64,000 nucleotides of DNA from a virus (Duplodnaviria > Caudoviricetes): positions 4,801 to 68,800 of IMG/VR virus record IMGVR_UViG_3300025885_000002; one strand, 5' to 3'. Shown in pieces: positions 13,200 to 58,241 of the stretch. The translations under genes and the position numbers were made by a program. The stretch's first letter is position 1. The number at the start of each line of letters is the position of its first letter. The notes beneath the pieces are model-generated. The model saw nothing but the letters and a program-made list of their open reading frames with translations. It ran no database searches and was not told the DNA's origin.

Positions 13200-13276
13200 T
13201 GGGCGCAGCGACGGGAGTCGAACCCGCTATCCCTTGGTTATGAGCCAAGGATGATTTTCCGTTTCACTCCGCTGCA
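13200..13276 (-). tRNA. tRNA with CAT anticodon (Met/fMet/Ile2 unresolved), CCA encoded
   Basis: Hand-folded cloverleaf: acceptor TGCAGCG/CGCTGCG, D stem GTGA/TCAT, anticodon stem CTTGG/CCAAG with loop CTCATAA, T arm GCGGG-TTCGACT-CCCGT, 3' CCCA. Confidence 0.85.
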
Positions 13277-36754: not shown

Positions 36755-37120
36755 TCAGAAGCCGGCGAATGCGTCGCCGACAAAGGGCTTTGGTTTCGGC
36801 ACCGGGCACAGCAGGGAGATCGCCTCCATATGCTTGCAGGGCTCGCCGAGATAGGACTTGCGATTGATCCAGTCGCCACAGCTGCAGGAGTATGGCGTTA
36901 CCACGTAGCTCTTCGTCCCGTCAGCAGAGTCGACCGTGAAGACATCGCCGTCGCGCCTGGCCGTAGCCGCGATCGCGGCCAGCTGCTCGTCCGTGGGTTG
37001 GTTGGCAGCCCGACGTATCCGCTCCAACGAAGGCGTCTTGACAGCCTCCAGTGCGCGGCCCGTGCGGATCGTCTCCCGGGCGAGGTCAGCAGCTTTCTGC
37101 TTGGAGATTCGGGCGCTCAT
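36755..37120 (-). CDS. SWIM zinc-finger protein
   Basis: YVV...CSCGDW...PCKHM. Confidence 0.8.
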   Translation of the reverse strand: MSARISKQKAADLARETIRTGRALEAVKTPSLERIRRAANQPTDEQLAAIAATARRDGDVFTVDSADGTKSYVVTPYSCSCGDWINRKSYLGEPCKHMEAISLLCPVPKPKPFVGDAFAGF

Positions 37121-37488: not shown

Positions 37489-37845
37489 ATGGCAAAAGAG
37501 CCAGTTGGAAAGCTAATAAAGCTCTCGGAGGCTACTTGGAACGCCCTCGCCGCCGATGCTGAGCGCTGTAAGCGTAGTTCAACCAAGCAGTTAGAGGCGA
37601 TCCTGACTGCCTACTACGGGCTGGACAATGTCGAACTGAGCGAGGTTGCGGCTATTAGGGAGACCGTAAGTCCGTACTTGGCAAAGGCTGAGCAGTCGGG
37701 AGGTGGAAAGGATCCGCGGAAAGGCCGGGCGTTCCTCGAACGCGTGCTCCAGCAGATGGCAGAAGAAGAATCGCCTGAGGAAGTGGCGGAAGCGGAGGGA
37801 TCCGAAGATACACAGAAAAGGAACCGTAAGACGGGCAACGGCTAA
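37489..37845 (+). CDS. Ribbon-helix-helix repressor candidate (CI-equivalent position)
   Basis: KLIKLSEATWNALAADAERCKRSSTKQLEAIL; divergent from the Arc-like gene; no S24 peptidase domain. Confidence 0.75.
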   Translation: MAKEPVGKLIKLSEATWNALAADAERCKRSSTKQLEAILTAYYGLDNVELSEVAAIRETVSPYLAKAEQSGGGKDPRKGRAFLERVLQQMAEEESPEEVAEAEGSEDTQKRNRKTGNG

Positions 37846-37962
37846 CAGGCGGTGCTATGGAGGCACGCTGGTAGCGTTGGCGCACTAAGGCAGGGTTGAG
37901 GCAGGCACACGTCCACTAACTAACCAGCTCTTCGGGGATGGAGGGCTCGGTCCTAACGTTGA

Positions 37963-38241
37963 TCAGGCACGGAAGCGCAGTCGCATCCAAACCAATAGGA
38001 GCGTGATGGCCACCACCATCAGACCCTTACTCTCTAGGCTATCTATCGTCTTGGGTCGTTCTGTAACTAAGCCTATACCCGGTGCTTCGCCATCATCGCA
38101 GAGGCAAGGGCCGCCTACGAAACAAGGCGAGCAGTAATCAGAGCGATTGCCGACTAATACATGCCCGGCCTGAGCGGGCGCCGTCGCGAGTGGAAGAGCG
38201 AAGAGGCCGCAAATGCAAACCACGAAAAGCACTCGTTTCAT
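37963..38241 (-). CDS. Secreted Cys-rich peptide precursor with C-terminal TM/basic anchor
   Basis: Signal peptide ending AQA; mature GHVLVGNRSDYCSPCFVGGPCLCDDGE; C-terminal GLMVVAITLLLVWMRLRFRA; GAGGTG SD. Confidence 0.7.
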   Translation of the reverse strand: MKRVLFVVCICGLFALPLATAPAQAGHVLVGNRSDYCSPCFVGGPCLCDDGEAPGIGLVTERPKTIDSLESKGLMVVAITLLLVWMRLRFRA

Positions 38242-39178
38242 ATCTCACCTCGTTGCTGCCGAGATAAAGCAGCGGATCCGGTCGCTGACGCTAAGAGCAG
38301 AACAGGCTCGAAGCGTCCGCAACTTTGTTGAAGTCGGTTCGATAGCTCACAGTTTGCGAGAACTTCCTCTCCCGCGGGAACTGGAAGGCATCGCGTCGTA
38401 TTACCAGGCCTGTGCCGACAGAGGCGACAACGGAGGACCTGAAATCCTTGCTGCATTAACTGAATCGCCCCTGCCGAATCTGCGCGCGCGTGCGCACCTG
38501 GCGCTTGGGACGAATGCGCTTACCGTCGCCGACCTCTCGCTTGCCGGCAGCTACTATAAGAGAGCACGCGCGGAATTCGTTCGGTGCTGCACGCCGGACT
38601 TGATTGGCGTTCTACATCTATCCCAGATGGAGGCCGTTGTGACTGCCCAGTCGGGAGATCATTCCCGGGCATTGAACGATCTTCAAGGACTCTGGGGCCT
38701 TGCGCGAGTAGTAATGCGCTCTCTACCGCCAGTAGGTTATGGCGTGATGAACTCGATTGCAACCGAGTTGGGTGCCAACGGACAACGGGAGTTTGCTTTG
38801 GCTCTCATTACGACCGTGACGGCATCTCCGTTCGTCCGGATCTATCCAGAATGGCTGGATACTCGAGACGAGATCGCTCAATCGGATAGAGATCGACGCT
38901 ATTTTCCAGGAGGGGAGGCGGAGCCAGACACAAGTCAGGTGTTCGAGCTCGCGGGGTATTACGAACGACGTGCAAGGGAGCGAGAGCAGGAGATCGACAG
39001 TATTCGGAGCCAAATAATCGCGTCGGTTGCCAAAGAGAAGAACCTAGACCCGAAGTCAGGTAAGGAAATTCTTGGCATCATCAAGAGAGCCGGGAGTGGC
39101 CGGGTTGTGGACCTCGAGGCCGCGAGGTCGTTCCTCGCTAACCTAGCAACGAAGAATCGTCGGCAATCGGAAGGATAG
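38213..39178 (+). CDS. TPR-like helical repeat protein
   Basis: Helical repeats (ARAHLALG..A...AGSYY..A; A.V.AQSGDH..AL..L; MNSIATELG..G..E.A), SPFVRIYPEWLDTR; GAGG SD. Confidence 0.7.
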   Translation: MQTTKSTRFISHLVAAEIKQRIRSLTLRAEQARSVRNFVEVGSIAHSLRELPLPRELEGIASYYQACADRGDNGGPEILAALTESPLPNLRARAHLALGTNALTVADLSLAGSYYKRARAEFVRCCTPDLIGVLHLSQMEAVVTAQSGDHSRALNDLQGLWGLARVVMRSLPPVGYGVMNSIATELGANGQREFALALITTVTASPFVRIYPEWLDTRDEIAQSDRDRRYFPGGEAEPDTSQVFELAGYYERRAREREQEIDSIRSQIIASVAKEKNLDPKSGKEILGIIKRAGSGRVVDLEAARSFLANLATKNRRQSEG

Positions 39179-39250
39179 GTTCTAACGGAGGTGGGGCATG
39201 AACCCGTGGGAGATCCTGAGATTCGGACGGAGCTCGCCAGCGGAAACCTA

Positions 39251-39598
39251 ATGAACAAGAACCAACGCATAGCCCTCCTTGCTAGTGTCTTTGTCGTCGT
39301 CACAATGCTGATCTTCCCGCCATGGACAGGATCCGCCTTTCCCGACGGCGCAAAGCGTAGCGACACAGTACCGCGGGTAGAGCGGTTCGCGGGCTATTAT
39401 TTTATTCTAACGCCCCCAATGCCTGCCGACGTGAACCGCTTCAATAGCCTGTTCGGTCAGTCAATCTCGTGGGGCGATGCGGATCAATTACAGCGCCGGG
39501 CCATCGAATACCGGCTCGACACGGCGAGGCTCTATGCTCAGTGGGCATGTGTGGTTCTCGTGGCGACCGGACTTATCCTGTTCTTCAAGACGCAATGA
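39251..39598 (+). CDS. Two-TM membrane protein (accessory)
   Basis: N- and C-terminal hydrophobic helices with FPPW after TM1. Confidence 0.7.
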   Translation: MNKNQRIALLASVFVVVTMLIFPPWTGSAFPDGAKRSDTVPRVERFAGYYFILTPPMPADVNRFNSLFGQSISWGDADQLQRRAIEYRLDTARLYAQWACVVLVATGLILFFKTQ

Positions 39599-40131
39599 AA
39601 CAAGAGCACATAGGCAGAGCCATCCTCAGAAGTCTGCGAACCTCGCTAATCGTGGTTGCAGTCGTTGGCGCGCTCGGCTGGATAGCCATCGACTGGTGCT
39701 GGAAGAACGTCAAGATCACAAAGGATACGCGTTACGCGAAAGGGACAATCACGGGAATGACGCTGGATTCCGCCGAAGACGATCGAGGCCGGGGCGGGTA
39801 CTTTTACATCGTCCGATACGAATTCCGAACGCCGTCGGGTGACGTTTACGACGGCACGGATACCGAGCCCGACAGCACCTCTCTTGAAGTTGGCGGCCCA
39901 ATCGAGGTCGAATATTCGCATTCTGATCCGGCCACCAACCGCGAGCGAGCCGAGCCAAGAAGCGCCTTCTTCGCGTGGGCCTACCTCATTGTCGCGATTG
40001 GACTGCTCGCGTGGGCCCTGGTCCATCTCGCGCGAGATTTTCTCAAGGATGTCGCGCAAATTAAGTGGAAGGTCGACTTTGAAAGGCGGATGGAGGAGCG
40101 TCTCCAGAGTGAGAGCGAGCCCCCCTCCTGA
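39595..40131 (+). CDS. DUF3592-like membrane protein
   Basis: TM-GTIT...YYIVRYEF...G..Y...VGGPIEVEY...P-TM architecture; ATGA overlap. Confidence 0.75.
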   Translation: MKQEHIGRAILRSLRTSLIVVAVVGALGWIAIDWCWKNVKITKDTRYAKGTITGMTLDSAEDDRGRGGYFYIVRYEFRTPSGDVYDGTDTEPDSTSLEVGGPIEVEYSHSDPATNRERAEPRSAFFAWAYLIVAIGLLAWALVHLARDFLKDVAQIKWKVDFERRMEERLQSESEPPS

Positions 40132-40204
40132 AGCTCACCAAAGAAGCGGAGAAGAAGGCAAAGAAGTAGCCCGCGGCGAACCCGAAGCGAGAGCAAGGAG
40201 GAGA

Positions 40205-40441
40205 ATGAATCTACCGCCGAATGCAAACGTAGCGACTGAAATATGTCAATGGTGCAAAGGATCAGGAAAAGACCGAGACCAGGAGTATTGCAACGCCTGC
40301 GGCGGGGTTGGCAGCGTTGTAATCGTTCAGCCGAGCAGGAAATGCGCAAACTGTTCAGGAACCGGAATTGATCAGAACTCTACACTGGACAGCTGTCGAT
40401 GCGCTCTGTGCCATGGGGCGGGCTGGGCTCACAAAGTGTAG
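40205..40441 (+). CDS. Stand-alone DnaJ-type cysteine-rich domain (four CxxCxGxG repeats)
   Basis: CQWCKGSG, CNACGGVG, CANCSGTG, CALCHGAG. Confidence 0.8.
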   Translation: MNLPPNANVATEICQWCKGSGKDRDQEYCNACGGVGSVVIVQPSRKCANCSGTGIDQNSTLDSCRCALCHGAGWAHKV

Positions 40442-41438: not shown

Positions 41439-42056
41439 ATGATTAAGATCTCTTTAACCAGCTTCATTGATGTTGTCACGAGCTCTGGTTCGCCGAAGCT
41501 AACGAAGATCCTAGAGCTGAAAAACCGTGGCGACTATCATCCGGTGATGGACTATTGGGGACCCCTGCGCGAACACATCGTGAAATACCACAAAGTAGGC
41601 GAAGGCGACAAGCGCTACCTCGACGGTCTGATCCCAACCCTCGATAAGCCGAGCAAGCAAGCCAACTGCCGGAACCTGATCACGAACTATAAGCGTTTTC
41701 TTGGACGAAAAGCCATTGAAACACTTGTCCCGCCGACCGCCACCTGGCGATATGAGAGTTTGGCCGTCAGGATTAATCCTGAAGTCTACCTCTCGATGGA
41801 CGGCGTCCGGCATATTATTAAGCTCTATTTCAAAGCAAGACCGCTATCGGTTTCACAGGTCGGACTCATCCACCTGTTGATGACGATGACCCTCTCTCAG
41901 AAGCTGGAAGCTCCTGTCACCTATACTGTTTACGACGCTCATCACAACCGGCCCTACTCAACGACCAACTCGAGCAATAGGCTCCTGCCGCTGCTATACG
42001 GCGAAGCCGACGGATTAATCAGCACTTGGAACAGGCTTCCCGAACCTCCCGAATAA
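41439..42056 (+). CDS. Conserved-looking hypothetical protein co-transcribed with the integrase
   Basis: 205 aa, GAGGAG SD, 2 nt before the int start. Confidence 0.75.
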   Translation: MIKISLTSFIDVVTSSGSPKLTKILELKNRGDYHPVMDYWGPLREHIVKYHKVGEGDKRYLDGLIPTLDKPSKQANCRNLITNYKRFLGRKAIETLVPPTATWRYESLAVRINPEVYLSMDGVRHIIKLYFKARPLSVSQVGLIHLLMTMTLSQKLEAPVTYTVYDAHHNRPYSTTNSSNRLLPLLYGEADGLISTWNRLPEPPE

Positions 42057-42058
42057 AC

Positions 42059-43273
42059 ATGGCTCAAGTCGAAAAGCGCAAAAAGGGATTCTACCGCATC
42101 ACGGTCTGGCTTCCTCGTACACCAGGAAGTAGCAAGCGCAATTACGAGCGCGAGTACTTCAAGGGAAAGCTGGAGGACGCCAAAACTCGCGGCCGCGAGA
42201 TGGAGGAGGAGTGCAAATCAGGCATCGTGCAGCGATCGCGCTCGATGACGGTCGATCAGTTCCTCGACCAGTGGCTGAAGATTGCAGTGAAGCCGCGCGT
42301 GGCCGCCAGGACCCACAATGACTACGAGACGCTTCTCAAGCGATATGTTCGACCTCAACTCGGGGAGTTGAAGCTGTCGGCGCTCGAGCCTCTTCAGATT
42401 CAGCAAGTTTATACTTCGATGCAGGAGAAGAAGCTTTCTCCTCGGACAGTACGATATGTCCACACTGTTTTGAACGACGCATTGAAGCAGGCGATCCGTT
42501 GGCGAATTCTGAAGTACAATCCCGCGGAAGGCGCCGACCTGCCAAAACGAAAGCGGACCGTCATACACCCTCTGACCGAGGAACAAGTGCCGATCTTCCT
42601 AGAGGCCGCAAAGCAGGGTGAATACTACTGCCTGTTTCTCGTGGCCCTCACAACAGGGATGCGGCCAGAGGAATACCTCGCGCTGGCTTGGCCAAACATT
42701 GACTTCAAGGCGCGGACAGTGAGGGTGTCGAGAGCTCTCGTCTGGGAGAGGAAAGGAAAGGGCTGGAGCTTTGGTGAACCAAAGACCCAGAAAGGGAGAC
42801 GGACTATCCCGCTGCCGGCTGAGACCGTCCAGGCGCTCCTCGATCACCAGCGCGAGCAAAAGAAAATCAGATTCAAGGCTGGGACAAAATGGAAAGATTA
42901 TGACTTGGTTTTTACTACGTCCGAAGGCGGCCCGATTGACCCTGACAATTTAGCCTCTCGGCATTTCAAGCCTGCGATCATACTGGCGGAGCTCCCGACA
43001 ACGACAAGATTGTACGATTGTCGACACTCATGGGTAACTCTCTCACTGGCGGCTGGCGTATCTCCGAAGACGGTGAGTGAGTGGGCTGGCCACGCCTCTG
43101 TAGCCTTTACACTGGACACCTATGCGCACCTCATACCCTCAATGGAACGCGCCGGCGCCGCCCAGATCCAGAAGATGTTCACGGCGATTTTGAAGCCCCA
43201 AAAGAGCACCTCCAAGACTGTTGGCACCCCTTTGAGAACCCCTAAAGAGAGGGGACGAGCTGGAAGTAGTTGA
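42059..43273 (+). CDS. int: Tyrosine integrase
   Basis: N-terminal arm-binding-like region, SAM-like domain, TGMRPEE, KT, LYDCRHS, WAGH, TLDTYAH. Confidence 0.95.
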   Translation: MAQVEKRKKGFYRITVWLPRTPGSSKRNYEREYFKGKLEDAKTRGREMEEECKSGIVQRSRSMTVDQFLDQWLKIAVKPRVAARTHNDYETLLKRYVRPQLGELKLSALEPLQIQQVYTSMQEKKLSPRTVRYVHTVLNDALKQAIRWRILKYNPAEGADLPKRKRTVIHPLTEEQVPIFLEAAKQGEYYCLFLVALTTGMRPEEYLALAWPNIDFKARTVRVSRALVWERKGKGWSFGEPKTQKGRRTIPLPAETVQALLDHQREQKKIRFKAGTKWKDYDLVFTTSEGGPIDPDNLASRHFKPAIILAELPTTTRLYDCRHSWVTLSLAAGVSPKTVSEWAGHASVAFTLDTYAHLIPSMERAGAAQIQKMFTAILKPQKSTSKTVGTPLRTPKERGRAGSS

Positions 43274-51059: not shown

Positions 51060-54000
51060 CTATTGCTGCATCAGCGCTTCGCGCACAGCTCGCCCGATAG
51101 TCCGCGATGGTTTGCGCTTCTCTTGTGGCTCCGCACCCTTTGGCCCGAGCTTTTCAGGAACAGCCTTCGCCTCAGCCATCGCCTTCGTAGCTGTTCGATT
51201 CATTGCGTCAATGATTCGATCCTTTGTCGGCACGTCCGTTGCCGCGTCGCGCTGCTTCTTCAGTTCGCTCAAAACCGTTGCTGCTTTGTTCAGGACACCG
51301 TGAGCCTTCGCGTCACCCTGAGTCTGCCCCTCAGGGCTCTTCGCCTTTTGTCCAGTGAGATCAAGTTCGCGGTAGAACTGCTGCACTTCAGGAGTGCCCT
51401 TGTAGGTTCCCAGACCGAACCCGGCGAACGCAGGAGCAGCTTTCGCAACTCCGACCCATCCGTCTTCCGTGGCAGCGTCTATCAGGTCGTTTGCGATCAT
51501 TGGGACGACCATCTGGATGAGCTGGTTCTGATCCAAGAATGCCGACGCTCCCTTCTGTTGTGGCATCCCAAGAGTTACCTGCTTGCCGCGCATGTCCGTT
51601 CCGGCGATCAGATTCACGACGGCCCCAGGTACCGGCGCCAACTTCGAGCGCCCGAACTGCTTCAGGACCTCGAAGAACTTGTCATTGTCCGCCTGTGGCG
51701 CACCCACTATCGTGCTCTCAATCGCACGCCCCATTCGAAACATTTGGCGCACGAATCCACCCATCCCGCCGGTCAGATCGACATGCGTCTTTCCGAAGAC
51801 TGCCTTGCCGAAGTCCGCGTCATCGGGATCAGACGTGACTTTCGCGCCCATCGCGGCAGCCCCGCCGAATATCGCGGCGAACGCCGCCATCGATCGGAGG
51901 GCTTCAGTGGCCGCAATGCGGCGCATCACCGGGTCATAGTGGATGTATCTGAGTGGATTGTAGACATCGTTGATCAACTGCACGCGCGACACCTGGAGCC
52001 GCCCGCTGAAGAGAAGATGATTCGCAGCGTTCGCATAGGTCTTTAGATTCTTCCCAAGATTTCCTCGACCAGTTGCAGAATTCACCAGGTGAGCTGCCTG
52101 TTTGAAGAACTCCGGGTGACTCTCGAACGTGTAGCCCTTGAGTCGGCCGGCGTCTGCATACTTGCTGAACATCGAGATCCGTTGCTGATTCATTGCGAGG
52201 TTATAGGCTTGCTCTGATTTTCGAACGTGCCATAGTCTCGCAGCTATTTCGCTCTGAAACGCCTCTTCGGACGCGTACCGTGGATCCACTTCAGTTGAAA
52301 GCCCGACGGTATCCAGTCCCGCCTGGCGACCCAACTCAAAGTCAGGATGCTGCTGCAATTCTTGCTGAGCCTTCGCGAATCCCTCTCGACTGAGGCGATA
52401 TCCTTCAATCGTGCGGCCTTCACGCAGGGTCTTAATCGGGTGAGTGACCAGATAGAACAATCCCTGCCTGCCGAGTGGGGCATCGATCGATGCCTTCAGC
52501 GCGCGTGGAGCTGACTGCATTTCGTGTAAGACTCGGCCAGCCGTCGAGCGACTCAGCCGTTGGAACTCTCGCGCCTGCGCCGCACGCGCTTCAAACGATT
52601 CCCGCTCGGCTTGAGCCTTCTGAATTCGAAGACCCATTACTTGAGAGTCGGTCATTGCGCCAGCTTCGCCTTTCGTCAAACTGGCGATCTTCGCAGCTTC
52701 TCGCGCGGCACTCTTGGCATCCTCCATCCGCTGAAAGGCCTGCTTGAATATCTGCCCCTTATTCTTCTTGTTAACCAAATCTGGGAACTGCTGCTTGAGA
52801 TCGTGGTAGAACTTGGACGTTGGTAGTACTCGACTCCGCGGCGGACCGCCTGGCTTCTCCGGAAGCAGCATCCCCGTCGCAACGTGCACCAGATCCTCGA
52901 GAGTCTGCGGACTATCGGGAGCTGCAGTTGCAAGTCGCTCCTTGGCAGCTGCAGCGCTATCTCGAATCGGGGTATCCCAGAGCCTCGAAGTCCGTTCCGC
53001 CTCTCTTTGGGCACCGACGCTCTCACGGTAACCTTTCTGCTGAGCCTTGTTTGCTTCACGAGCTGTCTTACGAGCTTCCTGGAGCCTCTGGCGCGCTTCT
53101 TCGGCTTGCGAGCGAGCTTCGGCTTGTTTGGCTTCTCCAGCTGCTTTCGCGGCTTCCTGGGCCTTCTGTCTTATCGCCTTCTTTTCCTGTCGGGTCTGAG
53201 CGCGTTCCGCTTCACGGATCTTCTGACGAATCTCTTGAACCGCTTCCTGCTCTTTGAATAGCCGCTGCCGAGCCTCTTCTCCTGCTCCCTGCTGGCTTGC
53301 CTTCTCAGCTTCAGCCAGAGCCTTACGAGTCTCTCTCAGTTGAGCCCGGGCTTCCCTTGCTATCTTGGCCCGCTCTTGACGATCAGCCTCCACCGCGGCG
53401 TCTGCTGCTTCGCGCGCTGCCTTCGCCTGGTCGCGGCGTTCCCTGCGAGCCTGCCGGGTGTCGACCTTCTCGGCCTCTCTCAGGGCTCTGCGCGCCTCCC
53501 TGATTTCGCTCGCAATCTCCTGAGCGGCAGTCGACCGAGTCTTCATATCCGCCAATCGATCTATCGTGTCTGCGCGCTTCTCTTCCGAGTAGATCTCGTA
53601 TGCACGCCGGCGAATGTCTTTCAGGTACGGCTCAGCTTCAGGAACTGCGCGCAAGATGTCGGCTTCCCATGTCGGTAAATCTACCTTGCCCAAACTTGCC
53701 GCTCCGTATTCAGCGATAATCTCCGCATCGCCTGGCAGTTTCCCGCGCTCACCGACGGCGCCGATTTGTCTGGGACGCTCGACCTCACCTTTCAAATTGC
53801 CGAAGTCCAGCTTGCCCATCTTGGCGCGAAGCTTCTCGAACGCGACGTTGGACTGCCTTTTCAGCCGACCTTCATAGTTAGTCTTTTCCTTTGGCGGGGG
53901 CTGAGGTCTCTCTGCGTTCTCTATATCCTCATATCTCCCAGGTCCCTTGCCTGCAGCCTCTAAGCGCATTGCTTCAGAGAGCGAATCCCATGGATTCGGT

Positions 54001-57000
54001 GCGTCGCGATCATATGCGTTCAGGCGAGTATTCTCTCCCCAGGGACCATAGCCCGGAAGAATGAATCCTTCCTCGCGAAGATGGTCCACCATGTCCTCAA
54101 CAGACCTACCGTTTTTTGTTATCAGTCCGGTTGTAGCTCCCTCCTTGTTGGAAAAGTGCATTGCGATGTCTGACTCTGATTCGTGAATACCGCCAGCCTT
54201 GCGAATCGCTGTAAGGAGCGATACGGGCTTCCTCTTCGGGATAGCCGCAGAGGCTTCGAGAAAAGGGTCGCGGGCGCGCCGTTCGGTTTCCAACTCGGCG
54301 ACCAGACCCTCGAGATGCTTGATGCGGGCGTCAGCATCAAAGCCCTTCTCGGCGTTCGCCGTGATGCGCGTGGCCTCTTCGACTGTCAGCTCTTTCGGGC
54401 CCCACTGCCACTTCCGCTTAGCGCGTAACTCCTTCTTCAACTTCGTCGCGATGGTGAGTTGACGCTCCGGAGAAAACATTGCAACGGCCTTCACCGCATT
54501 GATTGCTTGGCCAGTGCGAGTCATCTTCTCGGCAAACTCAGAGGCGAAGTCGACGGCCTTTTGCATCAAGACCTCCGCTTCTCCCGCTCGCTTCGTGTCC
54601 CCGGCGATCTCGGCTGCCCGATCCTGCAACTCTCGAATTGCCGCGAATCCGGCGATTGTCGATTCCGCGCTTACGTTATCTCCTCGAGCGAACTCCATCG
54701 CACCGTCTACGCCCTTCTCTTTGAGAATTGCGCGACCACGTTCTTCGGCGACGCTCAACGGCTGAGGTTCGTAAGTTTTGTTTGTTCCGGGTTCGAGGCC
54801 AGCAGCGGCGAGCGTTTGAGGCAGTGCGCGCTCTTTGCTGCCTTGCGGATATTCAGGTGGGCCATCGAAGTGGCCCGACTCGTCGCGGGGTTGAAATGCA
54901 GAGTGATGCGTCTCGGCGTTCTCACTCTTCCCGCCGAGTGGAATGGTTACCATCTCTCCGTTCTTGCCGCTGAACGTAATCTCGTTGAGCTCTACCTTTC
55001 GGCCCTCCAGGTCGGTGCGGCCTGAATACTTCTCGCCAAGGCCTGGCTTCACATACGCAACAGTCACGTGAGGCTTGTACTCCGGATGAGTATCGGTATG
55101 AGGCAGCGCATCGGCAATGATCTTGTTCAGACGATGCAGGTCGGGACTGTCGACCTCGGCAATCACGGCGTCGGCTGTACCGTCTTCGACACTCTTGAAT
55201 GTGGACGTCTTACCTATCGTTGCTGTGATGGGACCTTCATCGGCGAGGATCTCTCGAACTTTCGCCGCATCTGCGGTGTGTAATCCGTACTTGACTGTGA
55301 TGTGGGGTTCGGTCTCGCGACCATCGGCAGCAAGATCCCCTGTCGGAATGGTGCGGCCGAGCGCACGTACGGCTTTCGCGTGCTCATTTGGAAGATCGAC
55401 CTGCGTTGAGCTGAACTTGTGGACGGTGCCCGGCTCTACATCTTGTGCTTGCTCGCGAGTGGTGCTTGCTCCACTTCGGCCTGCTTCTTGGGATCCGACT
55501 TCGGCGGCAGCGTTACCGTGAGCTTCCCGCCCGGCGGCAGGCTCAGGAGCCAATCCGCTAAGGGTTCTGCCGGTTGCGTCTTGTCCTGCGGTTGCCTTGT
55601 TCCGGTTGAGGCCGGCGTTTGCGGCTGCTTCGTTTTCTCCGATGCCATGATGTAGCTCTACTCCCTTAATCTCGTGGACGGTTCCATCAGGGGCTTCATA
55701 GCGCACTGTAGCATCTCTCAGGCGTGCTTGTATATTCCCTATTTTGGCCTGTAGCTCTTCCGGAGAACTTGCCTTCAACGCAAACTCATCGCCCTTGAGG
55801 TGATAGGCTCCCCCGGGATGTTCATCCGCTACTGCCTGTGCCACCGCGTGAAGAATCTCATCTCCCATCTCAGGCGCGATCTTGTCGTTCGTCCGCTTGA
55901 GTCCCACGACGTCCAGCGCCGCGTGGTGGTTCTTGATTCCAGCTTCCGCGTCTACAGCATTCGACTCATTGTAGGCCCGACGATTTGGGATGCCGGTCAG
56001 TTCGTGCGTCAACAACGCCTGCGCCCGTTCCTCCGGAGTCATCGCCTCGACTCGTTTGCGTTCCTCCGCATTTTGACGACGATCACCCTGGCGACGATCA
56101 CCTTCCGCTACTGGACGCTCAGAAGTGACGGGCGGCTGAGACTCCGTGACAAGCCCCCTTTCCGCAGGCGTAGCCCCCTGTGCCCGCGGTATCGGAGTCG
56201 TTTCAGTGGCAGGAACACCGTCAGCCGCCCGTTTTTCAAACTGAACTTCGTCCGGGCGTTGTGTCGCTGAAGTTGGCACGCTTTCTGGCGGAATCGCGGA
56301 CGGCTGCGCGCTCTCTGTCAGAGGAGCAGTACCCTGTTGTGTATCACCAGGTGCAGCCGCCCGCGCTTCCGGTTCAATAAATCGAGCCTTTGGGTTCTTG
56401 CCTGCTAAGAGCACCTCTTTAATCGAGCCGTTGTCGAACTTCACTCGGACGTGTTGCGCCTTTACCCCCCGCTGGTTTGCATCGGCGATGCCCAGCCCAA
56501 AGTCATCGTGCTCTACAATCCGGCCGGCATTCTCGTGAGCCATTTCTCGGGCGACACGCTCGCGAGCCTTTGCAACCGCCTGCTCCTCCGTTATCTTGCC
56601 GCCACCGTGGAGCGCGAAGGCGATATCGAAGATTCGCCGACCGAAGAAGGCCGTTCGCTCCTCGGGCGTTTTCGGAATGACGCTCCCGCCTTCAAGCGCT
56701 TCCGTGCCCATAGAAATTGCACTATTGGCGAGTGCTCGCCCTGCGAGTTTCGACAGGCCACCGAGAGTAGTCCTTTCAAGTGCACCGCCGGCAGCACCCA
56801 TTACAGCGGGAGCTCCCGCGCCGATAAGACCCTTTGTGATTGCTTCGCCAGCCGGATCACCTGAGCTGTAGCTCGACGCGGCTGCCTGTCCGCCCATGAG
56901 ATACGGCGCTGCTTCGGGCAGGACCGCTGAGGCTAACAGCACAGGAGCCATCCCAACGGCACCCTCGTAGATCTCTTTCCCGAGGCCGGGCTCAAGTCCG

Positions 57001-58241
57001 TGAGCGCGGAGGTTAGCGGCTTCTTTGCGTGCCCTACCTGCAACCTGGCTGAAGATATTCCCCGGCGTTTCAGCGTCTTGCTGCTGGTTGAGCGCCTTCA
57101 ATCTCGCTTGAAGGTCAGGCAGCTCGTTCTCAAGAGCATTGCGCTCGGACTCAGACCACGCCGAGCGAGGAACTTTGGCCGCGCCCAGTTCCGCTGCTTT
57201 CCCTTCCAATGCCGCGATCTGCTGCTTGAGCAACTTCTGCTCAGGAGTGTCTGTCGATAGTGCCCGGCCGATAGTGCCCAACTCCTCCGCGCCCAAGTCG
57301 ACTAGCGGCCCTTCGGTTGAATTGGCTAAACGTTGCGCCAGCGGATTCCGGATCGTGGGGTTTCCCATCACGTCCACATCAGCAACGGGATTTCCCGCCG
57401 CGTCATAGAGGCCGGGAGTCGTCCCAGGCTTAGGTAGCTTGTCGGATGTTACTCCGCCCTTGACCGCAGAGTAGCTGCCCTCTGGATACTGGCCTGTCTC
57501 CTTCGCGCGAGCCGCGGCCTGCATCGCGGGCTGATTCGTTTGCTCCTCCTCCCAAAACTTCAGCGGATCACTGCGGAAGTCCTGCGCCAGCTTCGATCGC
57601 TTAGGGCCTCGGACGCGACGACGCGGATTGAGCACTGGATCGGCGGGAGCCTGTGCAGCGGGCGCCGTACTCGGTCGCTTCTGATATGGATTCCCGAATT
57701 CATCGGCGCCGACTTCATACCCTTTCGCCTTCAGTCGATCAGCGTAGAGTTTGACCGCATCGGCGTTACCGCCTTTCTTGTAGATCTCGAATTGTCTTTC
57801 GGCCTCAGTATCTTCCTGGAATTGAGGAGCCACACTCTTAACGGGCTTATTGGACGACGCCCCTGGAGTAACCGCCGTTGAATCATCGTCAAAGGACAGG
57901 TCGTCCCACTTTGCTGTTTGCCGCGGCTTTGCGGTCGGCTTCCACGCGACGTGAAGATGATCGCCCTCATCCAGCATCTCGCTGATCTGATCACCGTAGA
58001 GGGACTCGATATGCTTGCGGGTTGCTTTCTTCTGCTCCGGCGTGCCAACCAGGTCCAAGGCGTTCCCGGTCAGATGATTCGAATGCTCCGCGCCGCCGAC
58101 CGCTTTGTTGTGCGCAGGCGTGCGAGTATAGGACGACGTGCGCATTCCGAGCCTCGTAGCTTCTCCGGCGATGTGGTCAGCTACGCCCGGAGGCTCATCG
58201 AACGTCAGATCGTCCCACTTGACTTTGGATTGAGGGGTCAT
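51060..58241 (-). CDS. Giant polyvalent internal virion / ejection protein with M15 peptidase, GGDEF-like and 2H phosphoesterase domains
   Basis: SNHLTGNALD...HLH (M15); ELTGIPNRR...D..GLK..ND...GD...KGDEF; PHITV/PHVTV; long coiled coil; position between tailspike/pilot and small ejection genes. Confidence 0.85.
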   Translation of the reverse strand: MTPQSKVKWDDLTFDEPPGVADHIAGEATRLGMRTSSYTRTPAHNKAVGGAEHSNHLTGNALDLVGTPEQKKATRKHIESLYGDQISEMLDEGDHLHVAWKPTAKPRQTAKWDDLSFDDDSTAVTPGASSNKPVKSVAPQFQEDTEAERQFEIYKKGGNADAVKLYADRLKAKGYEVGADEFGNPYQKRPSTAPAAQAPADPVLNPRRRVRGPKRSKLAQDFRSDPLKFWEEEQTNQPAMQAAARAKETGQYPEGSYSAVKGGVTSDKLPKPGTTPGLYDAAGNPVADVDVMGNPTIRNPLAQRLANSTEGPLVDLGAEELGTIGRALSTDTPEQKLLKQQIAALEGKAAELGAAKVPRSAWSESERNALENELPDLQARLKALNQQQDAETPGNIFSQVAGRARKEAANLRAHGLEPGLGKEIYEGAVGMAPVLLASAVLPEAAPYLMGGQAAASSYSSGDPAGEAITKGLIGAGAPAVMGAAGGALERTTLGGLSKLAGRALANSAISMGTEALEGGSVIPKTPEERTAFFGRRIFDIAFALHGGGKITEEQAVAKARERVAREMAHENAGRIVEHDDFGLGIADANQRGVKAQHVRVKFDNGSIKEVLLAGKNPKARFIEPEARAAAPGDTQQGTAPLTESAQPSAIPPESVPTSATQRPDEVQFEKRAADGVPATETTPIPRAQGATPAERGLVTESQPPVTSERPVAEGDRRQGDRRQNAEERKRVEAMTPEERAQALLTHELTGIPNRRAYNESNAVDAEAGIKNHHAALDVVGLKRTNDKIAPEMGDEILHAVAQAVADEHPGGAYHLKGDEFALKASSPEELQAKIGNIQARLRDATVRYEAPDGTVHEIKGVELHHGIGENEAAANAGLNRNKATAGQDATGRTLSGLAPEPAAGREAHGNAAAEVGSQEAGRSGASTTREQAQDVEPGTVHKFSSTQVDLPNEHAKAVRALGRTIPTGDLAADGRETEPHITVKYGLHTADAAKVREILADEGPITATIGKTSTFKSVEDGTADAVIAEVDSPDLHRLNKIIADALPHTDTHPEYKPHVTVAYVKPGLGEKYSGRTDLEGRKVELNEITFSGKNGEMVTIPLGGKSENAETHHSAFQPRDESGHFDGPPEYPQGSKERALPQTLAAAGLEPGTNKTYEPQPLSVAEERGRAILKEKGVDGAMEFARGDNVSAESTIAGFAAIRELQDRAAEIAGDTKRAGEAEVLMQKAVDFASEFAEKMTRTGQAINAVKAVAMFSPERQLTIATKLKKELRAKRKWQWGPKELTVEEATRITANAEKGFDADARIKHLEGLVAELETERRARDPFLEASAAIPKRKPVSLLTAIRKAGGIHESESDIAMHFSNKEGATTGLITKNGRSVEDMVDHLREEGFILPGYGPWGENTRLNAYDRDAPNPWDSLSEAMRLEAAGKGPGRYEDIENAERPQPPPKEKTNYEGRLKRQSNVAFEKLRAKMGKLDFGNLKGEVERPRQIGAVGERGKLPGDAEIIAEYGAASLGKVDLPTWEADILRAVPEAEPYLKDIRRRAYEIYSEEKRADTIDRLADMKTRSTAAQEIASEIREARRALREAEKVDTRQARRERRDQAKAAREAADAAVEADRQERAKIAREARAQLRETRKALAEAEKASQQGAGEEARQRLFKEQEAVQEIRQKIREAERAQTRQEKKAIRQKAQEAAKAAGEAKQAEARSQAEEARQRLQEARKTAREANKAQQKGYRESVGAQREAERTSRLWDTPIRDSAAAAKERLATAAPDSPQTLEDLVHVATGMLLPEKPGGPPRSRVLPTSKFYHDLKQQFPDLVNKKNKGQIFKQAFQRMEDAKSAAREAAKIASLTKGEAGAMTDSQVMGLRIQKAQAERESFEARAAQAREFQRLSRSTAGRVLHEMQSAPRALKASIDAPLGRQGLFYLVTHPIKTLREGRTIEGYRLSREGFAKAQQELQQHPDFELGRQAGLDTVGLSTEVDPRYASEEAFQSEIAARLWHVRKSEQAYNLAMNQQRISMFSKYADAGRLKGYTFESHPEFFKQAAHLVNSATGRGNLGKNLKTYANAANHLLFSGRLQVSRVQLINDVYNPLRYIHYDPVMRRIAATEALRSMAAFAAIFGGAAAMGAKVTSDPDDADFGKAVFGKTHVDLTGGMGGFVRQMFRMGRAIESTIVGAPQADNDKFFEVLKQFGRSKLAPVPGAVVNLIAGTDMRGKQVTLGMPQQKGASAFLDQNQLIQMVVPMIANDLIDAATEDGWVGVAKAAPAFAGFGLGTYKGTPEVQQFYRELDLTGQKAKSPEGQTQGDAKAHGVLNKAATVLSELKKQRDAATDVPTKDRIIDAMNRTATKAMAEAKAVPEKLGPKGAEPQEKRKPSRTIGRAVREALMQQ

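Follow-up and report, generated by a model that had tools for sequence, protein, structure and literature searches.

Peptide-sensing regulators of the RRNPP type, such as PlcR-PapR, NprR-NprX, PrgX and Rgg-SHP, combine a cytoplasmic tetratricopeptide repeat (TPR) protein with a small exported-type protein encoded beside it, and they come as multiple paralogues. The receptor carries its own effector part, an N-terminal helix-turn-helix (HTH) domain in PlcR, PrgX, NprR, AimR and Rgg or a three-helix bundle in Rap, and the signal is the free C-terminal part of a short propeptide. In the arbitrium system of Bacillus phages (AimR-AimP-AimX) such a pair lies beside the lysogeny control genes, and AimP is a propeptide of 40-50 amino acids (aa) that yields a free hexapeptide. 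RRNPP systems are described only in Bacillota and their mobile elements (PMC10075063, PMC9765709); on a conjugative plasmid, RappLS20 acts together with RcopLS20 and Phr*pLS20 as a peptide-controlled TPR anti-repressor of an XRE repressor (PMC7430634). Here we describe a gene pair with a related parts list, one gene encoding a TPR-like protein and the other a small protein with a predicted export signal, in the lysogeny control region of a complete temperate phage of 68.8 kb with direct terminal repeats (IMG/VR record IMGVR_UViG_3300025885_000002). The window, that is the whole stretch of DNA analysed, covers 64 kb of this phage. The pair belongs to a family that has expanded in one order of Blastocatellia (Acidobacteriota), and we put at slightly below even the chance that it is a phage-borne version of an envelope-to-repressor signalling cassette of that order.

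Both genes are real protein-coding genes under purifying selection. The small open reading frame (ORF) keeps its frame in relatives of 70-74%, 45% and 37% identity, and a comparison of the window with locus L001 outside the overlap of the two genes gives pN 0.226 and pS 0.585 for the small gene (omega about 0.24) and an omega of 0.15 for the large one. A sequence-only reading made earlier from this DNA had proposed a 92-aa minus-strand ORF overlapping head-to-head by 29 nucleotides (nt) with a 321-aa plus-strand ORF, and its coordinates, strands and lengths hold (Table 1). It had also named co-occurrence in homologous loci beforehand as the test on which its proposal could fail. A word-indexed search yielded only three matches to the large protein and a single one to the small, and every relative locus fetched carries a small ORF on the opposite strand that overlaps the 5' end of the TPR gene (L001, 71%; L047, about 44%; L002, 36-40%; L050, 37%). 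In the wider set the small gene adjoins a TPR relative in 39 of 44 loci and is divergent and overlapping in 37, counts that rest on flanks of 1.2-1.5 kb and on chosen start codons. Two loci (L040, 1006-1335, minus strand; L046, 1007-1324, minus strand) place the small gene downstream on the TPR strand, between the TPR gene and an HTH gene and with no 5' overlap, and the remaining loci have a decayed copy (frameshifted in L039, remnants in L045) or none that was found. The association also holds in reverse: when five genomes were searched with a whole-protein profile of the small protein, each gave 3-19 copies, nearly all next to TPR genes, and the small protein is therefore dedicated to the cassette.

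The two starts are interlocked in that the Shine-Dalgarno (SD) sequence and the start codon of each gene sit inside the coding region of its partner. Good SD sequences had been claimed for both genes of the phage, and SD-like sequences do precede both starts. The ATG of each phage gene reads CAT on the strand of the other, and the complement CTCACCTC region of the small-gene SD is invariant or nearly so in four phage-type loci, where the overlap measures 29-32 nt and follows the same design as in chromosomal loci. An alignment of 31 chromosomal loci, anchored on the start of the small gene, shows GGAGGA at -12 to -7 of a start codon that is usually GTG, then T-G-C-A-T at +30 to +34, the complement of the ATG-CA (Met-Gln) that opens the TPR gene, giving a modal overlap of 35 nt, and finally CT.CC near +42, which on the TPR strand reads GG.AG and is the TPR SD. 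This reciprocal embedding accounts for a conserved Cys-Ile/Met and Leu-Pro in the signal peptide of the small protein and for a conserved Met-Gln and Ser-Ser in the disordered N-terminus of the TPR protein. It also bears on a lipoprotein assignment of the small protein, which was considered and ruled out: the Cys of the signal region varies among homologues, and where it occurs it follows from the TPR start codon read on the opposite strand. By itself the strictly conserved reciprocal embedding of ribosome-binding sites (RBSs) and start codons is out of the ordinary, both as dual coding and as a regulatory layout.

Since both initiation regions lie inside the partner gene, any mRNAs that carry both RBSs have complementary 5' ends, as the sequence-only reading had argued when it called the transcripts antisense. 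Expression of either gene therefore probably works against that of the other. Excludons (Listeria mogR/fli) and type I toxin-antitoxin systems resemble this locus in having divergent genes, complementary 5' mRNA regions and RBSs in the duplex-forming part; they differ in that here both partners are protein-coding, the overlap includes both starts, and the register is fixed family-wide at 35 nt (29 nt in the phage). The pair might then be an RNA-level toggle of the excludon or type I kind, in which the two mRNAs silence each other, the proteins need not touch and the small membrane protein might be harmful when made. The placement of SD sequences and starts in the complementary segment, with a geometry kept in 37 loci down to about 25% identity, speaks for such a toggle, but L040 and L046 keep both genes without the overlap, which argues for a link at the protein level and not only for antisense control. 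The small protein also differs from type I toxins in its predicted export signal and in a conserved His/Cys motif maintained by purifying selection, and we regard the toggle as a very improbable explanation of the pair.

By inspection, the small protein of the phage begins with a basic n-region (MKR) and a hydrophobic core, followed by an A-Q-A site before G-H; it has four cysteines, at positions 37, 40, 46 and 48, and its C-terminal hydrophobic stretch ends in W-M-R-L-R-F-R-A. The signal-peptide-like N-terminus, the four cysteines and the hydrophobic stretch with a basic tail that had been read from the sequence are thus all seen. Its homologues, 86-117 aa long, share the block P-F-x-x-V-A-x-A-G-H-T-x-x-G-x-W-C-x-C-G-x-P-G-C-x-C-D-P-G-E, with AG[HR] present in 37 of 37 and the Cys motif in 35 of 37, and the signal region is conserved as well. 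A hypervariable segment of 25-35 residues separates the Cys block from a putative anchor, a hydrophobic stretch of about 14 residues that opens with a conserved D-F-G-x-G-A-L. The protein closes with a constant-length tail, W(-6) x R(-4) hydrophobic R(-2) A(-1), in which R(-4) and R(-2) are each found in 27 of 32 sequences and W(-6) in 24 of 32. Neither this protein nor the phage TPR protein belongs to a family in Pfam, PHROG, NCBIfam or PADLOC, and the defence models of the last give no match for the phage pair.

The 321-aa protein consists of a TPR-like core (residues about 10-225), a low-confidence linker (226-252) and three C-terminal helices. The sequence-only reading had called it TPR-like, and this is borne out on several lines. 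TPR_12 is matched by 22 of 42 sampled family members and TPR_2 by 15 of 42, the phage copy itself falling below detection in Pfam. AlphaFold2 models of the phage protein (4-sequence alignment; predicted local distance difference test, pLDDT, 76) and of the chromosomal member P0018 (71 sequences; pLDDT 81, TPR core about 97) are both helical repeats, the former all-helical. These two independent models were compared with 48,161 PDB representatives by VIA-align, and PlcR (2qfc_A) is the top match of both, at Z 18.3 for the phage model (root-mean-square deviation 3.4, 215 residues aligned) and Z 18.7 for P0018 (5.1, 238 aligned), values to be read with the caution that helical repeats commonly reach Z about 13-14. 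AimR follows at Z 15.4 (phage) and 14.0 (P0018) and Rap of phi105 at 14.4 and 15.0, while each of three further regulators is listed for one model only: Rap of pLS20 (Z 14.4) and the anti-repressor GmaR (Z 12.8) for P0018, and NprR (Z 14.1) for the phage protein. Foldseek against the PDB gives only weak generic TPR matches (best E 2.7e-3). Among PDB sequences, a sequence profile strongly matches consensus TPR proteins (1.7e-22), with NprR reaching no more than E 0.01. The structural neighbours in the ESM Atlas include fused HTH_3+TPR regulators. In PADLOC one chromosomal TPR protein and one HTH protein give only generic weak matches to TPR, capH and control-protein models (E 0.003-0.01). Some members of the family are long (P0009 with 1321 aa, P0016, P0019, P0020 and P0101) and contain 2-4 copies of the TPR domain or carry it at the C-terminal end.

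The family is large and, as far as a literature search for the TPR and small-protein families found no description, apparently both unannotated and undescribed. A profile search of 1.84 billion representative proteins yields at least 820 clusters (50% identity) at E <= 1e-3 and 521 at E <= 1e-10, the members of which share a domain of about 200 residues (query positions 25-225). Within one GTDB order of Blastocatellia the TPR family is present in 52 of 58 genomes at 1-24 copies each; in a class-wide sample it occurs in 34 of 151 genomes and in a phylum-wide sample in 2 of 301, in both cases only in genomes of that order. The matches in sampled genomes being confined to one order, the TPR family is a lineage-specific expansion. 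Named metagenome-assembled genomes with relatives are a Blastocatellia bacterium and 'Chloracidobacterium sp. UBA7656', and the diderm host that had been suggested for the phage fits, all cellular relatives being in Acidobacteriota. A scan of viral contigs found no relatives, and one of metagenome contigs added only L050 and a duplicate of L001. The major head protein of the phage was not found in the 58 genomes of the order, and the assignment of the host therefore rests only on the distribution of the TPR family.

It is against this background that the likeness to RRNPP systems and to arbitrium, which the sequence-only reading had put forward as a question, has to be judged. The part that stands is the TPR fold, with PlcR as the best match and AimR, Rap and NprR in the lists, and the adjacent gene for an exported-type small protein; a fused DNA-binding domain and a significant sequence match to RRNPP families (NprR only at E 0.01) are what it lacks, and the small protein differs in kind from RRNPP propeptides. 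Where most RRNPP receptors have a fused HTH, roughly half of the loci have a separate XRE gene; the pair itself is divergent, its starts overlap, and the hosts are Acidobacteriota instead of Bacillota. RRNPP propeptides are shorter than the small protein described here, which in addition has a Cys/His motif and a putative C-terminal anchor. RappLS20-RcopLS20-Phr*pLS20 and the phage-borne Rap-Phr systems (phi3T, phi105) come close in another respect, since they too comprise a mobile-element TPR protein without a DNA-binding domain, next to a repressor gene and a gene for a small exported protein; the fold similarity to Rap is, however, only Z 14-15, there is no sequence similarity, and the orientation of the peptide gene and the type of its product differ. 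With arbitrium the locus has in common a phage TPR protein and an exported-type small protein beside lysogeny control, whereas AimR carries an HTH and is similar by fold only, AimP is a product of a different type, no aimX-like element was recognised near the pair in the window, and both the phage family and the host phylum are different.

True quorum sensing of the RRNPP or arbitrium kind would require that the small protein be a pro-peptide that is secreted, cleaved from its anchor and trimmed, and that a short diffusible peptide, which would most likely come from the variable linker, be re-imported to bind in the groove of the TPR protein and set lysis against lysogeny by phage or cell density. 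Several features are in keeping with this: the adjacency of the two genes and the fold matches already described, the expansion of paralogues within genomes together with a clade on mobile elements, as with Rap-Phr, the hypervariability of the linker, the conserved D-F-G-x-G before the anchor as a possible cleavage site, and the co-directional downstream position of the small gene in L040 and L046, which is that of rap-phr. Against it stand the restriction of described RRNPP systems to Bacillota, a diderm host in which the peptide must cross two membranes each way, a precursor of 86-117 aa with a C-terminal anchor, the lack of a significant sequence match to RRNPP families and the want of a recognisable aimX-like target. 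Moreover, all paralogues share the best-conserved parts, the His/Cys motif and the tail, the reverse of what a private signal would show. We consider such quorum sensing distinctly unlikely; a diffusible arbitrium-like peptide is possible, but it is less well supported than a relay from the envelope to the repressor.

The DNA-binding partner of such a relay is suggested by the third component of the cassette. In 20 of 41 loci an XRE-family gene (134-206 aa, HTH_3 above the Pfam cut-off) is convergent with the TPR gene, its 3' end overlapping that gene by 4-11 nt or lying within about 50 nt of it, and L014 and L045 have other XRE genes at the same position. The 3' overlap is often exactly 4, 9 or 11 nt (L004:9436-9858, minus strand; L024:2674-3165, minus strand; and 18 more loci), and many cassettes are overlapped at both ends, by the small gene at the 5' end and by the HTH gene at the 3' end. 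Whether the length of the TPR protein predicts the HTH partner was compared by eye, and no clear pattern was seen. The phage-type proteins form a group of their own: in a quick IQ-TREE phylogeny, with a midpoint root used for drawing only, the short proteins (280-333 aa) lie on one side of a branch with 100% SH-aLRT and 67 chromosomal members on the other. The genomic context is known for 6 of the 11 phage-type proteins, and all six contexts are lysogeny modules in which the pair follows a CI-like gene of the ribbon-helix-helix (RHH) or XRE type or stands beside an integrase gene; the linkage to phage immunity regions that had been suggested from the single locus is thus found in this short clade. 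In L002 the CI position, which lies ahead of the pair and opposite a Cro-like HTH gene, is filled by a homologue of the chromosomal XRE partner (35% identity over 93 residues, E 2e-10), and the contig of P0013 shows this order too, in the sequence HNH, HTH_3, TPR gene. The upstream gene is of the RHH type in the window, in L001 and probably also in L047, and in L050 the pair directly abuts an integrase gene whose product is 44% identical to that of the window. In the window itself the pair starts 118 nt past the stop codon of the CI-position RHH gene, so that its location directly downstream of the repressor, too, was correctly read.

In the envelope-to-repressor relay that we favour, the small protein would be exported and would display its conserved His/Cys motif in the periplasm, with the short C-terminal anchor keeping it in the inner membrane and the fixed tail W-x-R-hydrophobic-R-A-COOH pointing into the cytoplasm. 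The TPR protein, predicted to be cytoplasmic, may sense the state of the small protein, most simply by docking on this tail or on a proteolytically released fragment, and would relay that state to the adjacent DNA-binding repressor as an anti-repressor or co-repressor, like RappLS20. For the present phage this repressor would be the RHH CI-like protein; some phages and roughly half of the chromosomal cassettes would use an XRE-HTH protein. Through such a relay the phage cassette may bias the maintenance or induction of lysogeny in response to an envelope, redox or peptide cue. Docking on the tail is favoured because no other invariant part of the small protein could face the cytoplasm, and because TPR domains classically bind C-terminal peptides, as in Hop and PEX5.

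A number of observations weigh against this relay. The part of the small protein exposed to the cytoplasm would amount to no more than some 4-5 residues. The 42 sampled members of the TPR family match no HTH family of Pfam at E <= 0.01, and no DNA-binding or effector domain was recognised in them. The repressor is an RHH protein in the phage and an XRE protein in the chromosomal cassettes, and a conserved interface between TPR protein and repressor is not obvious. APC subunits, domain III of MalT and other TPR proteins reach Z 16-17.8 in the fold comparison, only 1-2 below PlcR; because generic TPR proteins score nearly as high, the fold as modelled is RRNPP-compatible and not diagnostic, and it does not single out a signalling role. 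The sequencing runs that contain the stretch are rhizosphere and soil metagenomes only, none of them on record as RNA. Finally, in half of the chromosomal cassettes about 1.2-1.5 kb of flanking DNA contains no gene for a DNA-binding protein.

The last observation would suit an accessory, moron-like envelope module unconnected with the switch. In such a module the small protein would have a task in the cell envelope, such as superinfection exclusion or the handling of metals or redox state, or would be sorted to the surface, and the TPR protein would serve it alone, in the cytoplasm, as a chaperone or as a factor for its targeting or maturation. The weak TPR-chaperone-like matches of the family (HrpB1_HrpK, SctY) agree with such a role, as does the position of the pair among small membrane-protein genes between repressor and integrase, a typical site of lysogenic conversion. 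The tail of the small protein has the three-part look of C-terminal sorting signals such as PEP-CTERM, GlyGly-CTERM and LPXTG, that is a short motif, a short hydrophobic stretch and a basic extreme C-terminus; to this extent the CTERM-like character that had been attributed to it stands, but four small proteins compared with the sorting-signal models of NCBIfam gave no match at E <= 1. With the whole-protein profile, moreover, the tail was found essentially only in the one small-protein family, so that a general sorting system is not implied, and among the recurrent neighbours of the cassette no gene for a maturase or a cognate sorting enzyme recurs. The neighbour that does recur encodes a DNA-binding protein, and the phage-type pair always abuts a repressor or an integrase gene. 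An envelope module of this kind is, in our view, unlikely.

Should its function not be communication between cells, the cassette would still be a good candidate for a new relay from envelope to transcription and for a new input to the lysis-lysogeny decision. It presents an RRNPP-like parts list (TPR protein, exported-type small protein, repressor), built differently, in a hard-to-culture diderm soil phylum, and temperate phages and integrative elements have taken it up right at their lysogeny modules. The cassette shares the logic and the fold class of RRNPP systems, and there is a real chance that it is something more distant. That it represents an unrecognised signalling class of diderm bacteria and temperate phages, in which an RRNPP-like TPR protein reads a tail-anchored, exported His/Cys mini-protein or a peptide cut from it and controls a separate repressor, the two genes being locked in antisense overlap, seems to us rather unlikely; were the signal diffusible, this would be the first communication of the arbitrium/RRNPP type outside Bacillota, deciding between lysis and lysogeny in a phage of Acidobacteriota.

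Table 1. The gene pair and surrounding features of the phage, in window positions.
Feature	Position	Strand	Remarks
Small protein gene, 92 aa	37963-38241	-	export predicted by inspection (n-region, h-region, AxA)
TPR protein gene, 321 aa	38213-39178	+	product predicted to be cytoplasmic
Head-to-head coding overlap, 29 nt	38213-38241	both	holds both start codons
SD-like GAGGTGA of the small gene	complement of 38245-38251	-	3 nt before the start; inside TPR codons 11-13
SD-like GAAGAGG of the TPR gene	38200-38206	+	6 nt before the ATG; inside the signal-peptide coding part of the small gene
CI-position RHH gene, 118 aa from a conserved MAKEP start	37489-37845	+	divergent from the Cro-position gene
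Cro-position RHH gene, 61 aa	37121-37306	-	first gene of the leftward early operon
Promoter-like TTGACA-17-TATATT, near-consensus, leftward	37378-37350	-	ahead of the Cro-position gene
Tyrosine integrase gene	42026-43273	+	Phage_integrase 4e-18, phrog_1 2.6e-72; ends the plus-strand lysogeny block that holds the pair
Primase/helicase, helicase, RecT-like, RecE-like and major head protein genes		-	

The CI-position gene, the TPR gene and the integrase gene share one direction. The gene called in L001 begins at the Met homologous to the MAKEP start. The product of the CI-position gene has no match in Pfam and a single weak one in PHROG, to a family of unknown function (E 0.018), and the Cro-position protein resembles FitA-like RHH proteins (E 0.001) and an Arc-like repressor PHROG (E 0.03), both below the cut-offs. 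A promoter scan revealed no sigma-70-like site for either the small gene or the TPR gene, and between the stop codons of the repressor gene and the small gene there is neither an intrinsic terminator nor an unusually stable structure (z-scores 0.6-0.9). The spacer between them (37846-37962) is well conserved in L001 (3020-3137) and partly so in L047; it includes GGCAGGCACAC and a CTCTTCGGGGATGGAG hairpin-like element. The spacer folds no better than shuffled sequences and has no T-run.

Directly 3' of the TPR gene lie two membrane-protein-like ORFs (39191-40131, plus strand), the second with a match to DUF3592 that is below the cut-off (E 1.6e-4); they may serve in lysogenic conversion or belong to the module themselves. 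They are followed in the lysogeny block by a small ORF (40160-40441, plus strand) with a match to the DnaJ CXXCXGXG zinc-finger domain, again below the Pfam cut-off (E 1.8e-6). On the other side, the gene that follows the Cro-position gene in the leftward operon (36755-37120, minus strand) shows a weak SWIM zinc-finger match (E 0.0015), and a homologue of it is kept in L001 (2064-2330). Further away the phage encodes a 2393-aa ORF (51060-58241, minus strand) and, among its late genes, a tRNA-Met with a CAT anticodon (13200-13276, minus strand).

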